Shown here piece after piece: positions 1 through 62,286 of a stretch of 64,000 bases of DNA (position 1 is its first letter; every line of letters starts with the position of its first letter). The translations under genes and the position numbers were made by a program. The stretch lies in assembly GCF_058153355.1 (NCBI RefSeq), contig NZ_CM177019.1, one strand, 5' to 3'. The notes under the pieces are model-generated. The model worked only from the letters and a program-made list of their open reading frames with translations. It made no database searches and was not told the DNA's origin.

Positions 1-1184
1 TTGTAACCCTGTCCTAAATCCTCTTTTTTCGATTGTGACGGAAAAATTCCAAAGTTGGTTTGACTTTTATACGTCAGCTGGAAGGCCTTACCCTGTTGTG
101 TTTCCAGCGTGATATTTTCACCTTCAGATAAACGTTCTTGTAGGCGAGTAAGTGCGCTATCCAACATTTCCTGCGCACCAGCATGACCAAAGGCGGCATC
201 CTCGCATATCTGTTTAAAAATACCTGCCTTTATTTCGTATTTTACATTACCGTCATCAGTAGTCTCAGCTCTTAAACCTTCAATAAACTCTTCATAACCA
301 AAGCTCTGATGAAAGGTGATAAAACGCACTCGATTATCTTTGATAAGCTGATCATAAATCTTTTTCAACTCGCGACGTTTTTCACTCTCATCCTTACCCT
401 CCTGCAGGGAGTAAGCGATCGGATCACAAATTTGTACAGCAAGCTCAATAGTACGATATGTTTTACCTGTACCTGGCGGGCCATAGAGAATTGTGTTTTT
501 AGGCAATGGCGAACTTATAACATCATCTTCTTGCTCATTTTCTTGTAAAGCACTTTCGCTTCCAACTAAACCGATAGCATTTTTATCCTGAATTTCATAC
601 GCATAGAGATGCCAAAGTGACATATTCAGCTCAATAGGGTCGATATCATCACCCAGCGCACGATTTAGCGTTTCTTTAAGATCAACATTGCGAGCCAGCC
701 ACTCCCGTTCTCCGGAAAGACCTAGCTGGAAATGGTTGTTGCAATAATTGTAGCAACTAAAAAAATTATTAACATTCACGACACTGCTAATTTTTGATGG
801 GTATATTGCTGCAAAAGCACGATTACAAAGAGCCCTATATACCTTATTTAATACTCCGTCCGCTTTAAGTTTGATAAGACGTTCAATGACCCGATTATAA
901 TTTTCTTGTGTACACTCTTCTGCTATCTGACGGGTGAGCGTTAGAAGGTCTTTTTGTGCATTTTCAAATTCAACCAATGACATCCCACCTTGCATCAGGC
1001 TGGAGACACCATTGTCACGTTCATACCATACCTGCCGAATCGTGGCTTCAGAAAAGTTTGGTTTTTCGGCCTGAATCTGTTCTACAAGCTCGCGGTAGTG
1101 TTTGCCCCAAACTGAATTGTATTGATTATTTTTTTCAATTTGAGCACGAAAGAAGGGGGCTAATGCTGATGAATCCTGAACCAT
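1..1184 (-). CDS. McrB-family AAA+ GTPase (restriction-system motor subunit homolog), N-terminal ~394 codons only; the 3' end runs off the window start
   Basis: Minus-strand reading frame opens at ATG (plus coords 1182-1184) and, as translated by hand, continues without stop to position 1. Contains a Walker A motif GPPGTGKT (around 459-482) and, further on, FHQSFGYEEFIEG, which resembles the McrB signature FHQSYSYEDFIQG. It is absent from the supplied ORF track, presumably because it is incomplete. Confidence 0.6.
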   Translation of the reverse strand, partial: MVQDSSALAPFFRAQIEKNNQYNSVWGKHYRELVEQIQAEKPNFSEATIRQVWYERDNGVSSLMQGGMSLVEFENAQKDLLTLTRQIAEECTQENYNRVIERLIKLKADGVLNKVYRALCNRAFAAIYPSKISSVVNVNNFFSCYNYCNNHFQLGLSGEREWLARNVDLKETLNRALGDDIDPIELNMSLWHLYAYEIQDKNAIGLVGSESALQENEQEDDVISSPLPKNTILYGPPGTGKTYRTIELAVQICDPIAYSLQEGKDESEKRRELKKIYDQLIKDNRVRFITFHQSFGYEEFIEGLRAETTDDGNVKYEIKAGIFKQICEDAAFGHAGAQEMLDSALTRLQERLSEGENITLETQQGKAFQLTYKSQTNFGIFPSQSKKEDLGQGY

Positions 1185-1542
1185 CTCTTAATCCAATATG
1201 TAGGGGGGAGGGAAATTGGGATAGCCTTATCTTATCGGATTAATCTCAAAAATGTTAAATTTTATGATAAAAAAAAACTTTCATCCTGAAATTACCTTCT
1301 GCCCTGGAGCCGCCACATTTATCTGATGACTTTGAACTGCAAAACGCATGGTGTTGGTGGTTCTCAGAGAAGGCCATAGCATTCTTTCAGACGTAAAATC
1401 GCTACTCGTTTTTCAACCTGTGTGCATTTTCTAGTTGCATAGGGAATCAACTGTTTTTCAGGTAGGTATTGTTTACAGTAAATGGATATGCCGAAATTCA
1501 GAGGGTTCCAGTAACGACATTTTGACAGCAAACATACGACAT

Positions 1543-2376
1543 TCATTTTGCTGATAACGCTGACGGATAGTGCTTCGCCACAATGTCATTCATCTTATCC
1601 ACCAGATCCAGTCGCTTGAATGTGATGTGTCCACTGCCTTTCTGGTAATAGCGGATGACAAATAAATCGTCATTAAATACCTGCTCATGCGGGTGAGCAC
1701 TAACGAAGTCCATAAACCGAATCGCAACATCATGCCGGTTATCGGGAATGGCCTTCCCATCCAGCAGATAGAACATCCGTTCCAGATCGGCAAGCTGATC
1801 TCGCCGCCAGCCCCAGTGCAGGCTGTAACCCCATCGGTCATGCTTCACCAGATTGTTAACGATAATCTTCTTACCGAAATAACAGGGATTATTGGTTTTG
1901 TAATCCCAGCTCAATCCCTTAAATACATTGATAATCCCACGTTCGAAAACGTCATGCTTATTGTGGTGGAGTTGTTCAAAGGTACTCAGGATGTTGGCTT
2001 CGCTAATCGCCGGGAGATCGCCCTCCTCCAGGTTCTTTGCCCACTGACTGCGGGCTTCGGCATCCATCAGAGTCAACATCCCGGACTTCAGCATGAGATC
2101 GCGCCAGATGCTGCGATCGATATTGCGGGTGATCGCCGACATCGCTTTGTCGGTTGGTTGCATCAGCCAGCAGTCAAAGGCATATCCATTACGCATTCCC
2201 CAGGTTCCAGCCACATCACCGCCAATACTGGATGTCAGACTGGAGATATCATCCAGTTTTTGGATTAGCGTCGCTATCAGCTTCAGTGCGCTATCACGTC
2301 CTGTGACGATACGCTCAATATTGGTCGAGCGAATTATCTCGTTGTGATCGGTTAAGACTTCAGCTTCTGTTTGCAT
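1543..2376 (-). CDS. Hypothetical protein, 277 aa, function unknown; lies between the McrB-like gene and the divergently transcribed hsdM
   Basis: Longest ORF in the interval and same strand as the McrB-like gene 358 bp downstream. I see no nucleotide-binding or methyltransferase motif. The plus-strand ORFs overlapping it (1687..2268, 2093..2347) look like antisense shadows. Confidence 0.45.
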   Translation of the reverse strand: MQTEAEVLTDHNEIIRSTNIERIVTGRDSALKLIATLIQKLDDISSLTSSIGGDVAGTWGMRNGYAFDCWLMQPTDKAMSAITRNIDRSIWRDLMLKSGMLTLMDAEARSQWAKNLEEGDLPAISEANILSTFEQLHHNKHDVFERGIINVFKGLSWDYKTNNPCYFGKKIIVNNLVKHDRWGYSLHWGWRRDQLADLERMFYLLDGKAIPDNRHDVAIRFMDFVSAHPHEQVFNDDLFVIRYYQKGSGHITFKRLDLVDKMNDIVAKHYPSALSAK

Positions 2377-2682
2377 AATCTTTCATCCGTAAAAAAATAC
2401 ACTCGCCGTTAGTAGCAGACGGATTATCCTCTGGTGAAAGATTGGGTAAATAATGAGATTGAAAATCGGGAAGGTGACTCGCAATAAATTATCTGATCAC
2501 CTACGGATGGACGATGGGCATATAAAATAGCCTCCTGACTCAAACGGTGAATGCTGAATAAGATGCACTAACAATCTGGTACTGAATCCCCTCCTCACCG
2601 TCATACAAATCTGAAAAACCAAAAAACTTCCGGTAAAATCCCGGCAAAAGCCGACGTTAAAAACACATTCAAAGGATAAAAA

Positions 2683-4239
2683 ATGACCAGTCTTCAGCAG
2701 CGCGCGGAGCTTCATCGCCAAATCTGGCAAATTGCTAACGATGTCAGAGGTTCGGTCGATGGATGGGATTTTAAGCAATACGTTCTGGGCGCGCTTTTCT
2801 ACCGTTTTATCAGCGAAAATTTTTCCAGCTATATTGAAGCCGGTGATGACAGCATCTGTTATGCGAAACTGGATGACAGCGTAATTACTGATGACATTAA
2901 AGACGATGCCATCAAAACCAAAGGCTACTTCATCTACCCAAGTCAGCTTTTCTGCAACGTAGCTGCGAAAGCAAATACCAATGACAGACTGAACGCAGAT
3001 TTAAACAGCATCTTCGTTGCTATCGAAAGTTCTGCTTACGGTTACCCTTCAGAAGCTGACATCAAAGGTTTGTTTGCTGATTTCGATACCACCAGTAACC
3101 GCCTGGGTAATACCGTTAAGGATAAAAATGCCCGCCTGGCCGCGGTTCTGAAAGGGGTTGAAGGGTTAAAGCTTGGCGACTTTAACGAACATCAGATTGA
3201 CCTGTTCGGCGATGCCTATGAGTTCCTGATTTCTAACTATGCGGCGAATGCCGGTAAGTCAGGCGGCGAGTTCTTTACACCGCAGCACGTCTCTAAGCTG
3301 ATTGCACAACTGGCTATGCACGGGCAGACCCACGTTAACAAAATCTACGACCCGGCAGCGGGTTCCGGTTCGCTGTTGTTGCAGGCTAAAAAGCAGTTTG
3401 ATGACCACATCATCGAAGAAGGTTTTTTTGGTCAGGAAATCAACCATACGACCTATAACCTGGCGCGTATGAACATGTTTTTGCACAACATCAACTACGA
3501 CAAGTTTGATATCAAGTTGGGCAATACGCTGACTGAGCCGCACTTCAGAGATGAAAAACCGTTTGACGCCATCGTATCTAACCCACCGTATTCGGTGAAA
3601 TGGATAGGCAGCGATGACCCGACGCTGATTAACGATGAACGTTTTGCCCCGGCTGGCGTCCTGGCCCCCAAATCAAAAGCTGACTTCGCCTTTGTACTAC
3701 ATGCGCTGAACTATCTTTCTGCCAAAGGTCGTGCTGCGATTGTCTGCTTCCCGGGTATTTTTTACCGTGGCGGCGCAGAGCAGAAAATCCGTCAGTATCT
3801 GGTTGATAATAACTATGTCGAAACCGTGATTTCACTGGCTCCGAACCTGTTCTTTGGCACCACCATTGCCGTCAATATTCTGGTGTTGTCTAAACATAAA
3901 ACCGATACCAAAGTTCAGTTTATTGACGCCAGCGAACTATTCAAAAAAGAGACTAACAACAACATTCTGACCGATGCCCATATCGAACAGATTATGCAGG
4001 TATTTGCCAGCAAGGAAGATGTTGCTCATCTGGCGAAATCTGTCGCGTTTGAGACCGTTGTCGCTAATGACTATAACCTGTCGGTAAGCAGCTATGTGGA
4101 AGCGAAAGATAACCGCGAAATTATCGATATCAGTGAGCTGAATGCTGAGCTGAAAACCACGGTCAGCAAAATCGACCAGTTGCGTAAAGATATTGATGCG
4201 ATTGTGGCTGAAATTGAAGGCTGCGAGGTGCAGAAATGA
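2683..4239 (+). CDS. hsdM: Type I restriction-modification system DNA methyltransferase subunit M (type IC-like)
   Basis: 518-aa ORF with an N6-adenine methyltransferase NPPY motif ([11 protein letters not shown]) and the AdoMet-binding region ([11 protein letters not shown]). RBS aaaggat sits upstream of the ATG at 2683. The stop overlaps the hsdS start (ATGA at 4236-4239). Confidence 0.9.
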
Positions 4240-5390
4240 ACGAGTTGAGTTATCTGGAAAAATTACTGGATGGGGTTGAGGTTGAGTGGTTGCCATTGGC
4301 TAAAGTTTGTCGTTTAATAAACGGGAGAGCATATAAGCAAGAAGAACTGCTTTCCAAAGGCAAATATCCAGTATTAAGAGTCGGTAATTTTTTTACTAAC
4401 CAAAATTGGTATTACTCAGATTTAGAATTAGATCAAGACAAGTATTGTGATAACGGTGACCTTTTATATGCTTGGTCCGCATCATTTGGTCCAAGAATTT
4501 GGCATGGGGGTAAATCTATTTACCATTATCACATATGGAAAGTGGTTCCAGATTCGAATCTTATTTGTAAACAGTTTCTATATTACTTGTTACAATGGGA
4601 TACTAAAGCACTTAAAGATGCACATAGCACTGGTTCTACTATGATGCACATCAGCAAAACTACAATTGAAAAAAGGTTAGTCCCCATCCCCTGCCCGGAT
4701 AATCCGGAAAAATCCCTTGCCATCCAGTCTGAAATCGTTCGGATTCTGGATAAATTTACTGCACTTACCGCTGAGCTTACCGCTGAGCTTAATATGCGAA
4801 AAAAACAGTACAACTACTATCTCGACCAGTTACTGAATCTTGAGGGTAGGGAAAATACTCGAGAAATGAGGATAGGTGATATTTATGATTTTCAGTATGG
4901 AACAGGCAATACAATTCCTAAATCTGGAGGGCAATATCCTGTTTATGGTAGCAACGGGATTGTAGGCTCCCATGACAAATATAACAGCGAAGACTCACCT
5001 GTTATTGGCCATATAGGTGCTTACGCAGGAATCGTTAACTGGGGCCAGGGTAAGCATTTTGTTACATACAACGGAGTTATTTGTAGGCACAAATCGAAGG
5101 AAGTTCTTCAAAAATACGCCTACTATTTATTACTTTTACAAGATTTCGGTTCAAAATCTAATAGTGCATCACAGCCTTTTGTTTCATATAACATATTAAA
5201 TGCTCCTATTGTTTTGGTTCCCCCTTTACAAGAGCAAGCTCGTATCGTCGCAATACTCGATAAATTCGACACCCTGACCAACTCCATCACCGAAGGTCTT
5301 CCGCGTGAAATCGAGTTGCGCCAGAAACAATACGAGTACTATCGTGATTTACTGTTCAGTTTCCCAAAACCTGAAACTCTCAGTAATTAA
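4236..5390 (+). CDS. hsdS: Type I restriction-modification system specificity subunit S (type IC-like, two target-recognition domains)
   Basis: 384-aa ORF translationally coupled to hsdM. It has two AT-rich variable regions separated by a conserved central region containing TAEL repeats, plus a conserved C-terminal region ([30 protein letters not shown]), as in EcoR124-type HsdS. Confidence 0.85.
4767..4790 (+). repeat. Two tandem copies of a 12-bp repeat ACCGCTGAGCTT (encoding TAEL-TAEL) in the central conserved region of hsdS
   Basis: Direct reading: accgctgagctt accgctgagctt at 4767-4790. In type IC HsdS, the copy number of this repeat is known to set the spacer length of the recognition sequence. 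Confidence 0.85.
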
Positions 5391-5511
5391 TTGACCATTA
5401 TTACAGACCGGACCATCTTAATATCCGGTCAGTATATAGACTATTTTTTACACGCCGGAAGTCACCATTAACCCCCTTCCGGCCCTTGCCAGACGGCACA
5501 AAGGATGCGCT

Positions 5512-8500
5512 ATGACTCATCAAACACACACCATTGCTGAATCCAATAACTTTATCGTTCTTGATAAGTACATCAAAGCTGAGCAAACAGGCGACAGCTA
5601 TCAGAGCGAATCGGACCTGGAACGTGAACTGATTCAGGACCTGCAAAATCAGGGCTATGAATTTATACCCGTAAAATCACAGTCAGCGATGCTGGCCAAC
5701 GTTCGGGAACAGCTTCAGAGCCTCAATGGTGTGGTGTTTAATGACAGCGAGTGGCGGCGTTTCACGGAGCAGTATCTGGATAACCCGAGCGATGGCATTC
5801 TGGATAAGACCCGTAAAATCCATATCGACTATATTTGCGACTTTATTTTTGATGACGAGCGACTTGAGAACATCTATTTGATAGATAAAAAGAATCTCAT
5901 GCGCAATAAGGTGCAGATTATCCAGCAGTTTGAACAGGCGGGTTCCCACTCTAACCGCTATGATGTCACGATCCTGATTAATGGCTTACCACTGGTACAA
6001 ATCGAACTGAAAAAGCGCGGCGTGGCGATTCGTGAGGCTTTCAACCAGATACATCGTTACAGTAAAGAGAGTTTTAACAGCGAAAATTCCCTGTTTAAGT
6101 ATCTGCAACTGTTTGTCATTTCTAACGGCACCGATACCCGTTACTTTGCCAACACCACAAAGCGCGATAAAAATAGTTTTGACTTCACCATGAACTGGGC
6201 GAAATCAGACAACACGCTGATTAAAGACCTCAAAGATTTTACCGCTACCTTTTTCCAGAAACATACTCTGCTTAATGTTCTGGTGAACTACAGCGTGTTC
6301 GATATTAGCCAGACGCTACTGGTGATGCGACCGTACCAGATTGCCGCCACCGAACGAATCTTATGGAAAATCAACAGCTCCTATAAAGCGAAAAACTGGT
6401 CTACCCCCGAAAGCGGTGGCTTTATCTGGCACACCACCGGTTCCGGTAAAACCCTGACCAGCTTTAAAGCTGCGCGTCTGGCAACAGAGCTGGACTTTAT
6501 TGATAAAGTCTTCTTCGTGGTCGACAGAAAAGACCTCGATTACCAGACCATGAAGGAATATCAGCGTTTTTCGCCAGATAGTGTTAACGGTTCGGAAAAT
6601 ACCGCAGGCCTGAAACGAAATCTGGATAAGGACGATAACAAAATTATCGTCACCACTATTCAGAAACTTAATAACCTGATGAAAGCAGAAAGCGACCTGC
6701 CTGTATACAATCAGCAAGTGGTGTTTATATTTGATGAATGTCACCGCAGCCAGTTTGGAGAAGCGCAGAAAAACCTGAAGAAGAAATTCAAACGCTATTA
6801 TCAGTTTGGTTTTACCGGCACACCTATTTTCCCGGAAAACGCTTTAGGCTCAGAAACGACCGCCAGCGTATTTGGTCGTGAATTGCATTCGTATGTGATT
6901 ACCGATGCGATTCGTGATGAAAAAGTGCTCAAATTCAAGGTGGACTATAACGATGTGCGGCCACAATTTAAGTCTTTAGAGACAGAAACCGACGAGAAAA
7001 AACTGAGTGCGGCTGAAAATCAGCAGGCGTTTCTTCATCCCATGCGTATACAGGAAATTACGCAATATATTCTGAATAACTTCCGCCAGAAGACCCACCG
7101 TACTTTCCCAGGTTCCAAAGGCTTTAATGCCATGCTGGCAGTGAGTAGCGTGGATGCCGCGAAAGCCTATTACGCGACGTTTAAACGGTTACAAGAGGAA
7201 GCCGCTAATAAATCTGCTACCTATAAACCACTACGTGTTGCGACAATCTTCTCCTTTGCCGCTAATGAAGAACAAAATGCCATTGGTGAAATTTCCGATG
7301 AAACTTTTGATACCAGCGCAATGGACAGCAGTGCTAAAGAGTTTCTCGACGCTGCAATTCGTGAATATAACAGCTATTTTAAAACTAACTTCAGTACCGA
7401 CAGTAACGGTTTTCAGAACTACTATCGTGATTTAGCCCAACGGGTTAAAAATCAGGATATCGATCTGTTAATTGTCGTTGGGATGTTTTTAACCGGCTTC
7501 GACGCTCCAACATTGAACACGCTATTCGTCGATAAAAACTTGCGTTTTCACGGCCTGATGCAGGCATTTTCCCGCACCAACCGCATTTATGACGCCACTA
7601 AAACCTTCGGTAACATCGTCACTTTTCGGGATCTGGAACGCTCAACCATTGATGCCATAACGCTGTTTGGTGATAAAAATACCAAAAATGTGGTGTTAGA
7701 AAAGAGTTATGCCGAGTATATGGAAGGCTTTACAGATGCTGCCACTGGTGAAGCTAAACGCGGCTTTATGGCAGTAGTTTCAGAACTGGAACAACGGTTC
7801 CCTGACCCTGCCAGTATTGAAAGTGAAAAAGAGAAGAAAGACTTCGTTAAACTGTTTGGTGAATACCTGCGCGCCGAGAACATCCTGCAAAACTATGATG
7901 AATTTGCCACGCTGAAAGCCCTGCAACAAATCGATCTTAGCGATCCTGTTGCGGTAGAAAAATTCAAAGCAGAACATTATGTGGATGATGAAAAGTTTGC
8001 TGAATTACAAACGATTCGTCTCCCTGCTGAACGTAAGATTCAGGATTATCGTTCGGCCTATAACGATATTCGTGACTGGCAGCGCCGCGAGAAAGAAGCT
8101 GACAAAAAAGAAAAATCAACCACTGACTGGGATGACGTGGTTTTTGAGGTCGATTTGCTGAAGTCTCAGGAAATAAACCTGGATTATATCCTTGGACTGA
8201 TTTTCGAACACAACAGACAAAACAAAGGTAAGGGCGAAATGACCGAAGAGGTCAAACGCTTAATTCGTTCGAGCCTTGGGAACCGTGCCAAAGAAGGCCT
8301 GGTGGTCGATTTTATTCAACAAACGAACCTGGATGATTTGCCGGATAAAGCCAGTATCATTGACGCGTTCTTTATCTTTGCTCAACGCGAACAGCAACGT
8401 GAAGCAGAAGCGTTGATTAAAGAAGAAAATCTCAATGAAGAAGCAGCGAAACGCTATATTCGCACGTCTTTAAAACGCGAATACGCCACCGAAAATGGCA

Positions 8501-8628
8501 CAGAATTAAACGAGACGTTACCAAAACTTAGTCCGTTAAACCCGCAATATAAAACGAAAAAACAGACGGTTTTCCAGAAGATCGTCGCGTTTATTGAGAA
8601 GTTTAAAGGTGTAGGCGGGCAGATATAA
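5512..8628 (+). CDS. hsdR: Type I restriction enzyme endonuclease/helicase subunit R (type IC-like, 1038 aa)
   Basis: 1038-aa ORF with SF2 helicase motifs (Walker A TTGSGKT, DEAH-like [10 protein letters not shown]). The length matches type IC HsdR such as EcoR124I as I recall it. A 121-bp gap after hsdS leaves room for its own promoter. Confidence 0.9.
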
Positions 8629-8852
8629 TGTATTAATCCGAACCTGATCTGGCAGATAGCTGTCAGATCAGGACTGAGCTAATACAAATTAATATCGAAC
8701 CGAAAATACCAACGCCTGTACCAACATTTTTCGTTTGCGATGGGTTGAAATTGGTTGGCTCTGAGAGAGTTAAAATAGCGAGAAAGATAGGTAACTAATG
8801 GATCCCAGACACAAAAAAAGCCGCCCTTGAGCGACTCGATTTGCATACGATG

Positions 8853-8937
8853 TGGTGCCGAAGGCCGGACTCGAACCGGCACGTATTTCTACGGTTGATT
8901 TTGAATCAACTGCGTCTACCGATTTCGCCACTTCGGC
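8853..8937 (-). tRNA. leuX: tRNA-Leu (anticodon CAA)
   Basis: The minus-strand sequence GCCGAAGTGGCGAAATCGGTAGACGCAGTTGATTCAAAATCAACCGTAGAAATACGTGCCGGTTCGAGTCCGGCCTTCGGCACCA has acceptor stem, D-loop, anticodon loop UUCAAAA (anticodon CAA), the long variable arm of a class II tRNA, T-loop GGTTCGAGTCC and 3' CCA. Confidence 0.92.
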
Positions 8938-14390: not shown

Positions 14391-15905
<1,515 letters not shown>

Positions 15906-16511: not shown

Positions 16512-19366
16512 TGGAAAAGACATACAACCCACAAGATATCGAACAGCCGCTTTACGAGCACTGGGAAAAGCAGGGCTACTTTAAGCCTAATGGCGATGAA
16601 AGCCAGGAAAGTTTCTGCATCATGATCCCGCCGCCGAACGTCACCGGCAGTTTGCATATGGGTCACGCCTTCCAGCAAACCATCATGGATACCATGATCC
16701 GCTATCAGCGCATGCAGGGCAAAAACACCCTGTGGCAGGTCGGTACTGACCACGCAGGGATCGCTACCCAGATGGTCGTTGAGCGCAAGATTGCCGCAGA
16801 AGAAGGTAAAACCCGTCACGACTACGGCCGCGAAGCTTTCATCGACAAAATCTGGGAATGGAAAGCGGAATCCGGCGGCACCATTACCCGTCAGATGCGC
16901 CGTCTCGGCAACTCCGTCGACTGGGAGCGTGAACGCTTCACCATGGACGAAGGCCTGTCCAATGCGGTGAAAGAAGTTTTCGTTCGTCTGTATAAAGAAG
17001 ACCTGATTTACCGTGGTAAACGCCTGGTAAACTGGGACCCGAAACTGCGTACCGCAATCTCTGACCTGGAAGTGGAAAACCGCGAATCGAAAGGTTCGAT
17101 GTGGCACATCCGCTATCCGCTGGCTGACGGCGCGAAAACCGCAGACGGTAAAGATTATCTGGTGGTTGCGACCACTCGCCCGGAAACCCTGCTGGGCGAT
17201 ACCGGCGTGGCCGTTAACCCGGAAGATCCGCGTTACAAAGATCTGATTGGCAAATATGTCATTCTGCCGCTGGTTAACCGTCGTATTCCGATTGTTGGCG
17301 ACGAACACGCCGATATGGAAAAAGGCACCGGCTGCGTGAAGATCACTCCGGCGCACGACTTTAACGACTATGAAGTCGGTAAACGTCACGCCCTGCCGAT
17401 GATCAACATCCTGACCTTTGACGGCGATATCCGTGAAAGCGCTCAAGTGTTCGATACTAAAGGTAACGAATCTGACGTTTATTCCAGCGAGATCCCAGCA
17501 GAGTTCCAGAAACTGGAGCGTTTTGCTGCGCGTAAAGCGGTCGTTGCCGCGGTTGACGCACTCGGCCTGCTGGAAGAAATTAAACCGCACGACCTGACCG
17601 TTCCTTACGGCGACCGTGGCGGCGTGGTTATCGAACCGATGCTGACCGACCAGTGGTACGTACGTGCCGACGTGCTGGCGAAACCGGCGGTTGAAGCGGT
17701 TGAGAACGGCGACATTCAGTTCGTACCGAAGCAGTACGAAAACATGTACTTCTCCTGGATGCGCGATATTCAGGACTGGTGTATCTCTCGTCAGCTGTGG
17801 TGGGGTCACCGCATCCCGGCATGGTATGACGACGCGGGTAACGTTTATGTTGGCCGCAACGAAGACGAAGTGCGTAAAGAAAATAACCTCGGTGCTGATG
17901 TTGCCCTGCGTCAGGACGAAGACGTTCTCGACACCTGGTTTTCCTCCGCGCTGTGGACCTTCTCCACGCTCGGCTGGCCGGAAAACACCGACGCCCTGCG
18001 TCAGTTCCACCCAACCAGCGTGATGGTATCTGGTTTCGACATCATCTTCTTCTGGATTGCCCGCATGATCATGATGACCATGCACTTCATCAAAGATGAA
18101 AATGGCAAACCGCAGGTGCCGTTCCACACCGTTTACATGACCGGCCTGATTCGTGATGACGAAGGCCAGAAGATGTCCAAATCCAAGGGTAACGTGATTG
18201 ACCCGCTGGATATGGTTGACGGTATTTCGCTGCCGGAACTGCTGGAAAAACGTACCGGCAATATGATGCAGCCGCAGCTGGCGGACAAAATCCGTAAGCG
18301 CACCGAGAAGCAGTTCCCGAACGGCATTGAGCCGCACGGTACTGACGCGCTGCGCTTCACCCTGGCGGCGCTGGCTTCTACCGGTCGTGACATCAACTGG
18401 GATATGAAGCGTCTGGAAGGCTACCGTAACTTCTGTAACAAGCTGTGGAACGCCAGCCGCTTTGTGCTGATGAACACAGAAGGTCAGGATTGCGGCTTCA
18501 ACGGCGGCGAAATGACGCTGTCGCTGGCGGACCGCTGGATTCTGGCGGAGTTCAATCAGACCATTAAAGCGTACCGCGAAGCGCTGGACAGCTTCCGCTT
18601 CGATATCGCCGCAGGCATTCTGTATGAATTCACCTGGAACCAGTTCTGTGACTGGTATCTCGAGCTGACCAAGCCGGTAATGAACGGTGGCACCGAAGCA
18701 GAACTGCGCGGTACTCGCCATACGCTGGTGACTGTACTGGAAGGTCTGCTGCGCCTCGCGCATCCGATCATTCCGTTCATCACCGAAACCATCTGGCAGC
18801 GTGTGAAAGTACTTTGCGGCATCACCGCTGACACCATCATGCTGCAGCCGTTCCCGCAGTACGATGCGTCTCAGGTCGATGAAGCCGCACTGGCCGACAC
18901 CGAGTGGCTGAAGCAGGCGATCGTTGCGGTACGTAACATCCGTGCAGAAATGAACATCGCACCGGGTAAACCGCTGGAGCTGCTGCTGCGTGGTTGCAGC
19001 GCGGATGCAGAACGTCGCGTAAATGAAAACCGTGGCTTCCTGCAAACGCTGGCGCGTCTGGAAAGCATCACCGTGCTGCCTGCCGATGACAAAGGTCCGG
19101 TTTCTGTTACGAAGATCATCGACGGTGCAGAGCTGCTGATCCCGATGGCTGGCCTCATCAACAAAGAAGATGAGCTGGCGCGTCTGGCGAAAGAAGTGGC
19201 GAAGATTGAAGGTGAAATCAGCCGTATCGAGAACAAACTGGCGAACGAAGGCTTTGTCGCCCGCGCACCGGAAGCGGTCATCGCGAAAGAGCGTGAGAAG
19301 CTGGAAGGCTATGCGGAAGCGAAAGCGAAACTGATTGAACAGCAGGCTGTTATCGCCGCGCTGTAA
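16511..19366 (+). CDS. valS: Valine--tRNA ligase
   Basis: 951-aa ORF with class I aaRS HIGH ([13 protein letters not shown]) and KMSKS motifs and a C-terminal coiled coil. The large antisense ORF 16466..19045 is a shadow of it. Confidence 0.95.
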
Positions 19367-19385
19367 TACTCATAGTGAAAACGAA

Positions 19386-19411
19386 GGCCGGAGCATACTC
19401 CGGCCTTTTTT
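19386..19411. terminator. Bidirectional rho-independent terminator between convergent valS and yjgN
   Basis: ggccggag-cata-ctccggcc hairpin followed by TTTTTT. Confidence 0.7.
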
Positions 19412-20190
19412 ATCTCTTACAGAAATGGTAAAGAAGGCATAACTCCCCGAGAAATACTGGCTAAGAAGCCTTTATCTGGTTGTTCTTCTTTATTGATTAA
19501 AGGAAGGTCATCCAAATCGCCCAGCAAATACGTATTTTTTGCCTGCCAGTCAATCATCCATATTTTCAACAGTGGATAAGCCAGACCGCCCGTAATCCCG
19601 GATATCACCACCAACGCACACATGCGATAAAGCATACCGTGGTACGTTAAAGTTGAGCGAAAACGAATACGCCCATCATTCAGTGACAGGTTGCTCATAA
19701 AATGGTTTCGCAACGACACCGTTAAATAACTGGTGCTAACAGCAATCCCAAAATAATAGATTAACTGCGCGATTATCATTTTACGTTGCATTTCCATAAA
19801 TTGCTGTAAATTCTCAATGTCATCATTTGCATATACAGAACTATCATACGCATTTAATATTTGATCGAAGATAATATAACCAGCAACAGCGAGAAAAGGC
19901 AATAAAGCTAAAAATGCGAGAATGGCATATTTTATACAATACGTAGTATCTAATTTCACCTTGAAACGATGTATACCGAAACTGGTATTGCTCCAGAGAA
20001 AACTCATTACCAGACTATATAAAGTACCATTAAAAATACCAATGGAAACAATACCAACTATTGCCATCAGAACCATAGATATAATAACACTACTTGAACT
20101 ATTGGCATGTAGCATCTTTGTCGAGATAAAGAAAACAGTCCCCATCCCAACGGCCATTAAAATCGGCAAGAAAAAGGTCACCCACCAGAG

Positions 20191-21616
20191 TAATGCCGAT
20201 CAGTTAAGGATCAGTTGACCGATCCAGTGGCTGTGTAAGAATCCGGAAACGCTCACTTGTTTCCGGATTTTTTTATGCACATTGGACAGGCTCTTGATCT
20301 GGTATCCCGTTACGATTCTCTGCGTAACCCACTGACTTCTCTGGGGGATTACCTCGACCCCGAACTCATCTCTCGTTGCCTTGCCGAATCAGGTACTGTA
20401 ACGCTACGCAAGCGCCGTCTTCCCCTCGAAATGATGGTCTGGTGTATTGTTGGCATGGCGCTTGAGCGTAAAGAACCTCTTCACCAGATTGTGAATCGCC
20501 TGGACATCATGCTGCCGGGCAATCGCCCCTTCGTTGCCCCCAGTGCCGTTATTCAGGCCCGCCAGCGCCTGGGAAGTGAGGCTGTCCGCCGCGTGTTCAC
20601 GAAAACAGCGCAGCTCTGGCATAACGCCACGCCGCATCCGCACTGGTGCGGCCTGACCCTGCTGGCCATCGATGGTGTGTTCTGGCGCACACCGGATACA
20701 CCAGAGAACGATGCAGCCTTCCCCCGCCAGACACATGCCGGGAACCCGGCGCTCTACCCGCAGGTCAAAATGGTCTGCCAGATGGAACTGACCAGCCATC
20801 TGCTGACGGCTGCAGCCTTCGGCACGATGAAGAACAGCGAAAATGAGCTTGCTGAGCAACTTATAGAACAAACCGGCGATAACACTCTGACGTTAATGGA
20901 TAAAGGTTATTACTCACTGGGACTGTTAAATGCCTGGAGCCTGGCGGGAGAACACCGCCACTGGATGATACCTCTCAGAAAGGGAGCGCAATATGAAGAG
21001 ATCAGAAAACTGGGTAAAGGCGATCATCTGGTGAAGCTGAAAACCAGCCCGCAGGCACGAAAAAAGTGGCCGGGACTGGGAAATGAAGTGACAGCCCGCC
21101 TGCTGACCGTGACGCGCAAAGGAAAAGTCTGCCATCTGCTGACGTCGATGACGGACGCCATGCGCTTCCCCGGAGGAGAAATGGCGGATCTGTACAGTCA
21201 TCGCTGGGAAATCGAACTGGGATACAGGGAGATAAAACAGACGATGCAACTGAGCAGGCTGACGCTGAGAAGTAAAAAGCCGGAGCTTGTGGAGCAAGAG
21301 CTGTGGGGTGTCTTACTGGCTTATAATCTGGTGAGATATCAGATGATTAAAATGGCGGAACATCTGAAAGGTTACTGGCCGAATCAACTGAGTTTCTCAG
21401 AATCATGCGGAATGGTGATGAGAATGCTGATGACATTGCAGGGCGCTTCACCGGGACGTATACCGGAGCTGATGCGCGATCTTGCAAGTATGGGACAACT
21501 TGTGAAATTACCGACAAGAAGGGAAAGGGCCTTCCCGAGAGTGGTAAAGGAGAGGCCCTGGAAATACCCCACAGCCCCGAAAAAGAGCCAGTCAGTTGCT
21601 TAACTGACTGGCATTA
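20191..21616 (+). mobile_element. Insertion sequence IS4 (1426 bp) with 18-bp imperfect terminal inverted repeats and a 12-bp target-site duplication
   Basis: Left end TAATGCCGATCAGTTAAG; right end reverse complement TAATGCCAGTCAGTTAAG (16/18 match). Direct repeats CACCCACCAGAG at 20179-20190 and 21617-21628. Confidence 0.9.
20275..21603 (+). CDS. insG: IS4 transposase (DDE family)
   Basis: 442-aa [30 protein letters not shown]..., spanning almost the whole element. Confidence 0.9.
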
Positions 21617-22249
21617 CACCCACCAGAGCCCTTTCATAGAGCAATTAAAACTAAATCTTACGCCGTTGAGACTGGTCATTAAGGCCTGATGACGCAGTCC
21701 TTTTGCTGCCATAAATATAAGCAAAACCAACAGTAACAAAGTCAAAACACAACCAACAAGCGGCATATCTGCTGACACTGTCATTAAGATTGCGAAATAG
21801 AAAAAAACAAAAACAAAAACAAGACAACTAACAAAAACATTCCCACCGGTAATTCCATAAGAAAATCGTTGTCCGTTAACTTCCATATTAGCATAAAGAT
21901 AACGCTTACATTTCATTAATGCCCATGGTAAATAGATACCTAACGTTATAATCGTTAACAACACATTCACCACACAAATAAGAAAATATCTCTCACCTGT
22001 ACCATGAAAAACAAACGAATGGGACGGAACATCCATTTCATTAATAACTTGAGCCATAAAAAATCCCTGAATTAAAAAATCCATTGATATAACTTATATA
22101 TACAGACAGTAAAATGTTCTGCCACGTTACAATACTCTTATCAGTAATAGGCTGGCAAAAACTTTATTACTTTATAAGTCGCTTGCGCACGTAAGAAGAG
22201 AGTGGTATTAAACAAATGTATAATTACTTTATTTTTATTGGGTTAAACT

Positions 22250-46174: not shown

Positions 46175-46276
46175 GCCGGATGCGGTGCACCTGTAGGCCT
46201 GATAAGACGCATCAAGCGTCGCATCAGGCACTATGCTCAAATGCCGGATGCGGCGTGAACGCCTTATCCGGCCTAC
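46175..46276. repeat. Cluster of REP/BIME elements between yjgA and mpl
   Basis: gccggatgcggtgcacctgtaggcctgataagacgcatcaagcgtcgcatcaggc ... gccggatgcggcgtgaacgccttatccggcctac. Confidence 0.75.
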
Positions 46277-52960: not shown

Positions 52961-52984
52961 AGTTTCCCCCGTTGTAAAGCGTGC

Positions 52985-53090
52985 GCCAGATAAGACACAA
53001 CAGCGTCGCATCAGGCATCTCGCACAACCGCCGGATGCGGCATAAACGCCTTATCCGGCGGCGTACAAGTCGGCATCAGGTATTGATGTC
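52985..53090. repeat. REP/BIME elements between ytfR and ytfQ
   Basis: gacacaacagcgtcgcatcaggc ... gccggatgcggcataaacgccttatccggcg match the REP consensus. Confidence 0.7.
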
Positions 53091-62110: not shown

Positions 62111-62286
62111 GTTTTGCATTTATCAGTCGTCTGAATTTTAACCCTCTGGCGACTTTACAGTACCTTACGCTATACTAGCCACTGAAAATGCCGGTTCACT
62201 TTCTTCGAATCGGCTTTCAATGTGTATTTCACACAAATTAATCAACTTCCCCTTCCGAGGATCTGGCCTGAAAGGTCGGATAAGAT

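Follow-up and report, generated by a model that had tools for sequence, protein, structure and literature searches.

An IS4 element lies within the coding sequence of yjgN, the gene for a DUF898 inner-membrane protein, in the window analysed here (a 64,000-nucleotide stretch of contig NZ_CM177019.1 from the RefSeq assembly GCF_058153355.1), and with a probability of about 95% it came to lie there by transposition. So read, the event is a simple transposition of a known element behaving as expected, and the outcome is an ordinary strain-specific knockout. The IS4 family, of which IS4 is the founding element, consists of elements that a DDE transposase moves by cut-and-paste, and staggered cleavage of the target yields the 11-14 bp repeats of IS4, such that a duplication of this kind is its signature. 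A staggered cut by the transposase in yjgN would have left the 12-bp duplication of the target that now surrounds the complete element. The features of the interrupted locus are collected in Table 1.

Table 1. Coordinates of IS4, the interrupted yjgN gene and neighbouring signals in the window
Feature	Position	Strand	Basis
IS4, complete, 1426 bp	20191..21616	+	Length and termini by script
Left terminal inverted repeat, TAATGCCGATCAGTTAAG	20191..20208	+	Script check
Right terminal inverted repeat, reverse complement TAATGCCAGTCAGTTAAG	21599..21616	-	Script check
IS4 transposase gene (insG-type), 442 aa, ATG at 20275	20275..21603	+	ORF list, script, Pfam
Target-site duplication, left copy, CACCCACCAGAG	20179..20190		Script
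Target-site duplication, right copy, CACCCACCAGAG	21617..21628		Script
yjgN N-terminal fragment, 147 aa from the MAQV start, ending ...KGLWWV-stop	21614..22057	-	ORF list
yjgN C-terminal fragment, codons after L-W-W-V	19417..20190	-	ORF list
In-frame 6-nt repeat expansion, AAAAAC on the plus strand, which inserts V-F when compared with the closest intact yjgN	21803..21808		Alignment
Sigma-70-like promoter candidate for the transposase: TTGACC, 16-nt spacer, AAGAAT, extended TG	20215..20242	+	Consensus match
15-bp stem-loop leading into a U-run	20237..20272	+	Fold: -18.8 kcal/mol, z = -6.7, 0/200 shuffles as good
11-bp stem-loop just inside the IS right end	21587..21612		Fold: -19 kcal/mol, z = -6.0
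Bidirectional terminator-like hairpin between convergent valS and yjgN	19383..19408		Reported on both strands

The transposase gene of the window copy is on the plus strand, antisense to yjgN, and the two termini of the element (TAATGCCGATCAGTTAAG versus TAATGCCAGTCAGTTAAG) are identical at 16 of 18 positions. When called mechanically, the transposase ORF extends to 448 aa, with a TTG at 20257 taken as the start. The protein matches the Pfam families Nterm_IS4 (E = 3e-33) and DDE_Tnp_1 (E = 8.7e-32), its catalytic residues are arranged as D133-(75)-D209-(104)-E314, and the Y(2)R(3)E(6)K motif (YREK) occupies residues 307-321. The features of the IS4 subgroup were taken from De Palmenaer et al. 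2008 (PMC2266710). The spacing of the DDE triad falls within D(60-110)D(100-150)E, the Y(2)R(3)E(6)K motif is that of the subgroup, and a single 442-aa ORF is carried by an element of 1426 bp, within the 1400-1650 bp size range of these single-ORF elements. The terminal signature -AATR--------WTW---- is found in TAATGCCGATCAGTTAAG, with AATG at positions 2-5 and TTA at positions 14-16, and the exact repeat of 12 bp lies within the 10-13 bp range of subgroup target repeats (PMC2266710). At the nucleotide level, the window copy is 99.9% identical over 100% of its length to the annotated 'IS4-like element IS4' of many E. coli, and its sole difference from twelve E. coli IS4 copies is a private synonymous G at 21279 (Lys335). 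It differs from the annotated copy of MG1655 (K-12), representing the type element, at 3 of 1426 nucleotides, two of which change amino acids (A304G and L326R), and the exact 442-aa transposase is present on at least 1000 contigs.

The duplicated target was searched for on both strands of the 64-kb window and has only two exact occurrences, which border the element on either side and read CTC TGG TGG GTG, or L-W-W-V, on the minus strand. At the right junction LWWV is followed by a TAA codon, which IS bases 21614-21616 supply in reverse complement. The mechanical ORF of the N-terminal part of yjgN is 156 aa long and begins at an upstream ATG at 22084; that of the C-terminal part is 254 aa long and begins at a GTG at 20181-20179, within the repeat, and this GTG 'start' is an artefact of ORF calling and not evidence of a start. 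Together the two fragments tile the 336-position DUF898 profile (PF05987), with the N-terminal fragment matching profile positions 2-132 (E = 2.5e-31) and the C-terminal fragment matching positions 127-315 (E = 1.2e-15), and the amino acids of the C-terminal part are identical to those of reference YjgN. Removal of the IS and one repeat copy restores one uninterrupted DUF898 frame of 401 aa from the MAQV start, or 410 aa from the upstream ATG. The reconstructed gene can be aligned over its full length with the intact yjgN annotated in strain CFSAN064035, at 99.3% identity; two substitutions and the 6-nt in-frame repeat set them apart. It lies between valS and yjgM-rraB-argF, as yjgN does in CFSAN064035, identifying the gene as the orthologue of E. 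coli yjgN; in the window it is no longer intact, as the IS follows codon 147 and introduces an in-frame stop.

These results agree with most of what the initial annotation had read from the locus: a complete 1426-bp IS4 with imperfect inverted repeats and an intact 442-aa transposase, an exact 12-bp duplication with the LWWV codons visible on both sides, a yjgN frame split by the element, and a TAA on the minus strand formed by the last three IS bases. The alignment to an uninterrupted yjgN that had been proposed as a check returned a collinear gene, and in the reference alleles yjgN continues past the interruption. The counts of 156 and 254 codons given for the two fragments hold for the mechanical ORFs but not for products, since the N-terminal fragment from the annotated start has 147 aa.

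As the TAATGCC terminus of the IS falls in frame with yjgN, translation would halt directly past residue 147. The interrupted gene is most plausibly a null allele or a truncated one, from which the 147-residue N-terminal stub may be made. The C-terminal stretch of about 254 codons is most likely silent, given that neither a promoter nor a ribosome-binding site is evident for it. Transcripts from the yjgN promoter would run into the IS antisense to the transposase and there meet the 11-bp hairpin and a U-rich tract; on the minus strand, UCUUUUU comes directly after this stem-loop, which is terminator-like toward transcripts arriving from that promoter. yjgN is monocistronic and converges on valS, with valS ending at 19366 and yjgN at 19417. 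Because the two genes are convergent and a bidirectional terminator lies between them, there is no downstream gene on which a polar effect could act. Since downstream polarity is not expected and about 15% of complete E. coli genomes lack yjgN, its loss is likely to have been neutral or nearly so.

At the other end of the element, the sigma-70-like candidate is the only promoter-like site for the transposase, in a region where the number of such matches is no higher than expected by chance. The U-run of the 15-bp stem-loop stops 2 nt short of the transposase ATG, and the candidate -10 box is located in the left arm of the stem. This structure resembles a read-through terminator or a hairpin that occludes the ribosome-binding site, and hairpins that occlude or terminate read-through from outside are a frequent arrangement among IS elements. 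Since the -10 box overlaps the hairpin, native transposase transcripts would be expected to escape it, whereas read-through transcripts from outside would be terminated or occluded.

A yjgN::IS4 query returned no match at a coverage of at least 80% among 5,426 complete E. coli genomes, of which 4,589 carry an uninterrupted yjgN and about 800 lack the gene. The Logan assembly of SRR31441161 encodes exactly the 147-aa product, on a contig that shares 4,467 nt with the window at 0 mismatches and ends 26 nt into the right end of IS4 across the same junction. The break of this contig inside IS4 is as expected of a repeated element in a short-read assembly. The DNA flanking the insertion is 96.7-99.0% identical to that of the best-matching complete genomes. 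The insertion is real and lineage-restricted, and it is probably recent, its confinement to a rare lineage being what points to a recent origin; in evolutionary terms, this age is suggested by the absence of the insertion from the sampled genomes together with the intact duplication. The junction could thus serve as a marker of the strain or lineage, given its absence from the 5,426 complete E. coli genomes.

The description of the insertion as recent and possibly still active in the initial annotation is reasonable as an interpretation of the exact duplication, the intact ORF, whose product recurs on at least 1000 contigs, and the absence from complete genomes. The accompanying statement that IS4 is usually single-copy holds for the median, which is 1 place per genome in the 2,686 genomes that have at least one match to IS4, but not for the maximum, which is 24. 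Both ends and the ORF are intact and the duplication is exact, which fits a mobile copy, and the window element may still be capable of transposition. In mutation-accumulation lines, the K-12 IS4, whose transposase is 2 aa apart from that of the window, started as one copy and inserted anew 8 times, at a low rate (PMC5009759), and the IS4 family has expanded in Shigella (PMC2266710).

Alignments of the yjgN::IS4 query ran about 20 bp past both IS ends at unrelated IS4 loci, an observation that prompted a comparison of the flanks. Twelve other IS4 copies were compared, comprising those at crr/pdxK, at adhE/tdk (in both orientations) and at nine more sites in one NCTC genome. The target duplications of all twelve measure 11-14 bp. 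With positions counted relative to the first duplicated base, the 24 half-sites (both ends of the twelve copies) possess A at -6 and -5 without exception (24/24), A at -4 in 21/24, and C at the first duplicated base in 18/24. The target pattern of IS4 is thus the pseudo-palindrome AAA-NNN-[C…G, 11-14 bp]-NNN-TTT, in which the A- and T-runs lie three bases from the duplication, and most of the other sites are terminator-like hairpins between convergent genes. A consensus of the AAA-N-TTT type was reportedly proposed in the early IS4 papers (Klaer in 1981, and Mayaux in 1984 on the target consensus). Another eighteen left junctions were taken from Kosakonia oryziphila, Photorhabdus khanii and a contig that is probably K-12 contamination; G adjoins the left end in 15 of these 18 cases, and the species-representative genomes scanned with the IS4 left end contained no other yjgN junction.

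The yjgN site, GAAAAAGGT[CACCCACCAGAG]CCCTTTC (duplication in brackets), fits this pseudo-palindrome. A log-odds matrix was built from 11 independent sites, amounting to only 22 half-sites from three genomes, with the window left out, and was applied to the window with the IS removed. By this matrix the yjgN site ranks 6th of 250,092 position-by-length candidates; its left half-site scores 12.0 bits and its right half-site is weaker at 3.2 bits. Both this rank and the pattern shared by the twelve copies support the earlier characterisation of IS4 as highly target-selective. The yjgN insertion is a clean natural example of IS4 target choice, in which a look-alike of an intergenic hairpin within a coding sequence was used, and the pattern is sharp enough for likely future insertion sites in a genome to be predicted.

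The duplicated target itself carries a difference from other alleles. Each copy of the repeat has G as its final base, where all uninterrupted yjgN sequences examined have A; the closest intact allele reads CACCCACCAGAA and encodes F148, where the window has L148. None of the 2,601 E. coli genomes matched by a reconstructed 70-mer was identical to the G version of the empty site. In the metagenome collection, a 26-mer ending in G had no match and the A version had 17, all of them uninterrupted. The reconstructed 400-aa protein is absent from the protein collection, which is a weak test, as the query also carries the extra V-F. Across the genomes and metagenome contigs searched, the G allele has so far been seen together with the IS only. 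The simplest history is that the A-to-G SNP (F148L) came before the insertion, because both copies carry G, each having inherited one strand of the original target, and the alternative would need two identical later changes.

This SNP occupies the outermost duplicated base of the right half-site. Among 42 half-site observations, the preferred base at this position (G, or C at the opposite end) occurs in 33 and the base of the reference allele in 1, and the SNP adds about 5 bits to the matrix score and raises the site from rank 26 to rank 6 within the window. It is conceivable that a mediocre IS4 target became a good one through this lineage-specific change, which would thereby have caused the insertion, a speculation that is rather less probable than its opposite. 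If true, it would represent a natural case of a single base change making an IS hotspot inside a gene.

Other accounts of the locus fare poorly beside transposition into yjgN. One concern is that the assembly put an IS4 copy into yjgN through a mis-join at a repeat, since IS4 may occur at up to 24 places in one genome and repeats do cause mis-joins. Such a join, however, would not yield an exact 12-bp target duplication on both sides, nor is it consistent with the fit of the site to the IS4 target pattern or with the mismatch-free arrival of the SRR31441161 short-read assembly at the same right junction. This independent junction and the matched duplication exclude an assembly chimera for practical purposes. 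Inversions flanked by IS4 are known from Shigella sonnei, one of them spanning the valS-yjgN-yjgM region (PMC12795559), and the element could by analogy mark the endpoint of an inversion or deletion between two IS4 copies. Recombination between different copies would leave unmatched flanks, whereas here the flanks bear the same 12-bp repeat, rejoin as one collinear yjgN, and are followed outward by valS and by yjgM-rraB-argF, respectively, which is the order seen when yjgN is uninterrupted. The matched duplication is enough to refute such an endpoint and the collinear flanks likewise exclude it, leaving it almost no credence. A further suggestion, made in the initial annotation, concerns expression of the C-terminal fragment from an outward promoter. 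In this account yjgN would retain partial function through a promoter borne by the IS or formed as a hybrid at its end, with translation from the GTG in the repeat, and the 254-codon open frame that starts at 20181 and the occurrence of outward promoters in some other IS elements are in its favour. A consensus scan, which is insensitive to weak transcription, found no minus-strand promoter-like site within the element or at its left end, and the suggestion is unsupported to that extent; the minus-strand matches all lie downstream in the AT-rich coding region and total 5, against a shuffle expectation of 5.3. No suitably spaced Shine-Dalgarno-like sequence precedes the GTG or the next ATG, transcripts from the yjgN promoter would meet a terminator-like hairpin upon entering the IS, and the break falls within a hydrophobic segment of a multi-pass membrane protein. 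Expression of a functional C-terminal fragment is accordingly very unlikely.

Whether the knockout was selected, with the loss of YjgN benefiting the lineage, or was a neutral hit on a good target is a separate matter. Selection might be suspected from the existence of independent truncations close to the same codon and from the absence of yjgN from about 800 of the 5,426 genomes. The yjgN of GCA_050027435.1 has a nonsense mutation, TGG to TAG, at W149, and an N-terminal yjgN fragment of E. coli CE549 ends in WWV+VMTPTY, presumably through read-through into the end of an IS1. GCA_050027435.1 was retrieved through the exact 254-aa C-terminal fragment, and it has the nonsense mutation and no IS. 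Truncations near this codon are over-sampled, however, since the protein cluster from which they came gathers fragments of similar length, and an apparent truncation hotspot near codon 148 was rejected as an ascertainment effect of length-based protein clustering. The literature on yjgN function was uninformative, no phenotype having been found in it, and the fit of the target to IS4 accounts for the position of the insertion by itself. Selected loss is therefore improbable, albeit less so than the alternatives above, and a neutral insertion into a good target is preferred. At face value, the insertion adds to the IS knockouts already known in dispensable genes and has little significance.

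Compared with known systems, the insertion resembles the other disruptions of yjgN in position, the nonsense mutation and the apparent IS1-end read-through lying near the same codons, but these are different mutations in different strains. The IS4 copies at crr/pdxK, adhE/tdk, eno, rpoD and other loci represent the same element in the same target architecture as that of the yjgN site. Those sites are mostly good hairpins in intergenic DNA, whereas the yjgN site is coding sequence and possesses only the AAAGG/CCTTT complementarity. Conserved target arms have been described for some IS4-subgroup elements (PMC2266710), and they are seen for the window IS4 too. With the IS4 of K-12, the insG element that is the ISfinder type and a member of the IS4 subgroup, the window copy shares its length of 1426 bp, its termini and a single 442-aa DDE ORF; the K-12 element, however, sits between yjgZ and nanX, and the window copy sits inside yjgN.

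Relative to the closest intact yjgN allele, from strain CFSAN064035, the N-terminal fragment of the gene in the window carries a six-nucleotide, in-frame repeat expansion (see the table). Other broken alleles of the gene were also found. An independent yjgN pseudogene in GCA_050027435.1 (L004, a locus from another genome, 3960-4040) carries a W149 nonsense mutation, TGG to TAG, that lies one codon away from the IS4 site of the window and leaves a downstream ORF of 254 aa, the same as that of the interrupted yjgN in the window. The yjgN fragment of E. coli CE549 (P0007) has the C-terminal end ...WWV+VMTPTY, a tail that resembles translation running on, at the same codon, into an IS1 end. The crowding of truncations near this site is probably due to a length bias of the protein cluster.

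Further features of the window, with Rfam elements as matches at gathering score
Feature	Position	Strand	Remarks
Type I restriction-modification hsdM/S/R set	2683-8628		ahead of tRNA-Leu(CAA)
tRNA-Leu(CAA)	8853-8937	-	
Ysr276	14952-15146	-	antisense within pepA; Rfam
Six-nucleotide repeat expansion, yjgN N-terminal fragment	21803-21808		AAAAAC on + strand; in frame, adds V-F relative to closest intact allele
Second insertion sequence (ORF)	31393-32373	+	326-aa ORF between ridA and mgtA
Mg riboswitch	35391-35506	-	upstream of mgtA; Rfam
naRNA4 (REP-derived), first of two	46196-46273	-	Rfam
naRNA4 (REP-derived), second of two	52984-53060	-	Rfam
STnc450	62168-62225	+	Rfam

Besides the IS4 in yjgN, the window contains a second insertion sequence, in the ridA-mgtA interval, recognised by its ORF, which possesses DEDD_Tnp_IS110 and Transposase_20 domains; at the equivalent position in E. 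coli N96, an IS621 (IS110-family) transposase is annotated. At the left end of the window (1-8937), the tRNA-Leu gene, which by the K-12 map is leuX with its variable defence island, is preceded by a DUF4942 gene and an McrB-family gene as well as the hsd set. In strain PE15, hsdM is itself split by an IS3. The Rfam elements are all expected in this chromosomal region.

IS4 was also encountered in other assemblies. In Kosakonia oryziphila REICA_142, 30 identical nucleotides of the IS4 left end are present on at least 16 contigs, nearly all of which end within about 350 nt of it, and these contigs therefore indicate that IS4 has expanded beyond the two genera. A 265-nt contig assigned to Methylobacterium mesophilicum NBRC 15688 has a flank exactly matching the one that borders IS4 in E. 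coli K-12, where the copy sits between yjgZ and nanX; the contig most likely represents K-12 contamination of the assembly. In the adhE/tdk intergenic terminator of two E. coli genomes (loci L002 and L006), IS4 occupies one and the same hairpin in opposite orientations, with a duplication of 11 bp in one genome and 12 bp in the other; these insertions are separate events at a single IS4 hotspot.
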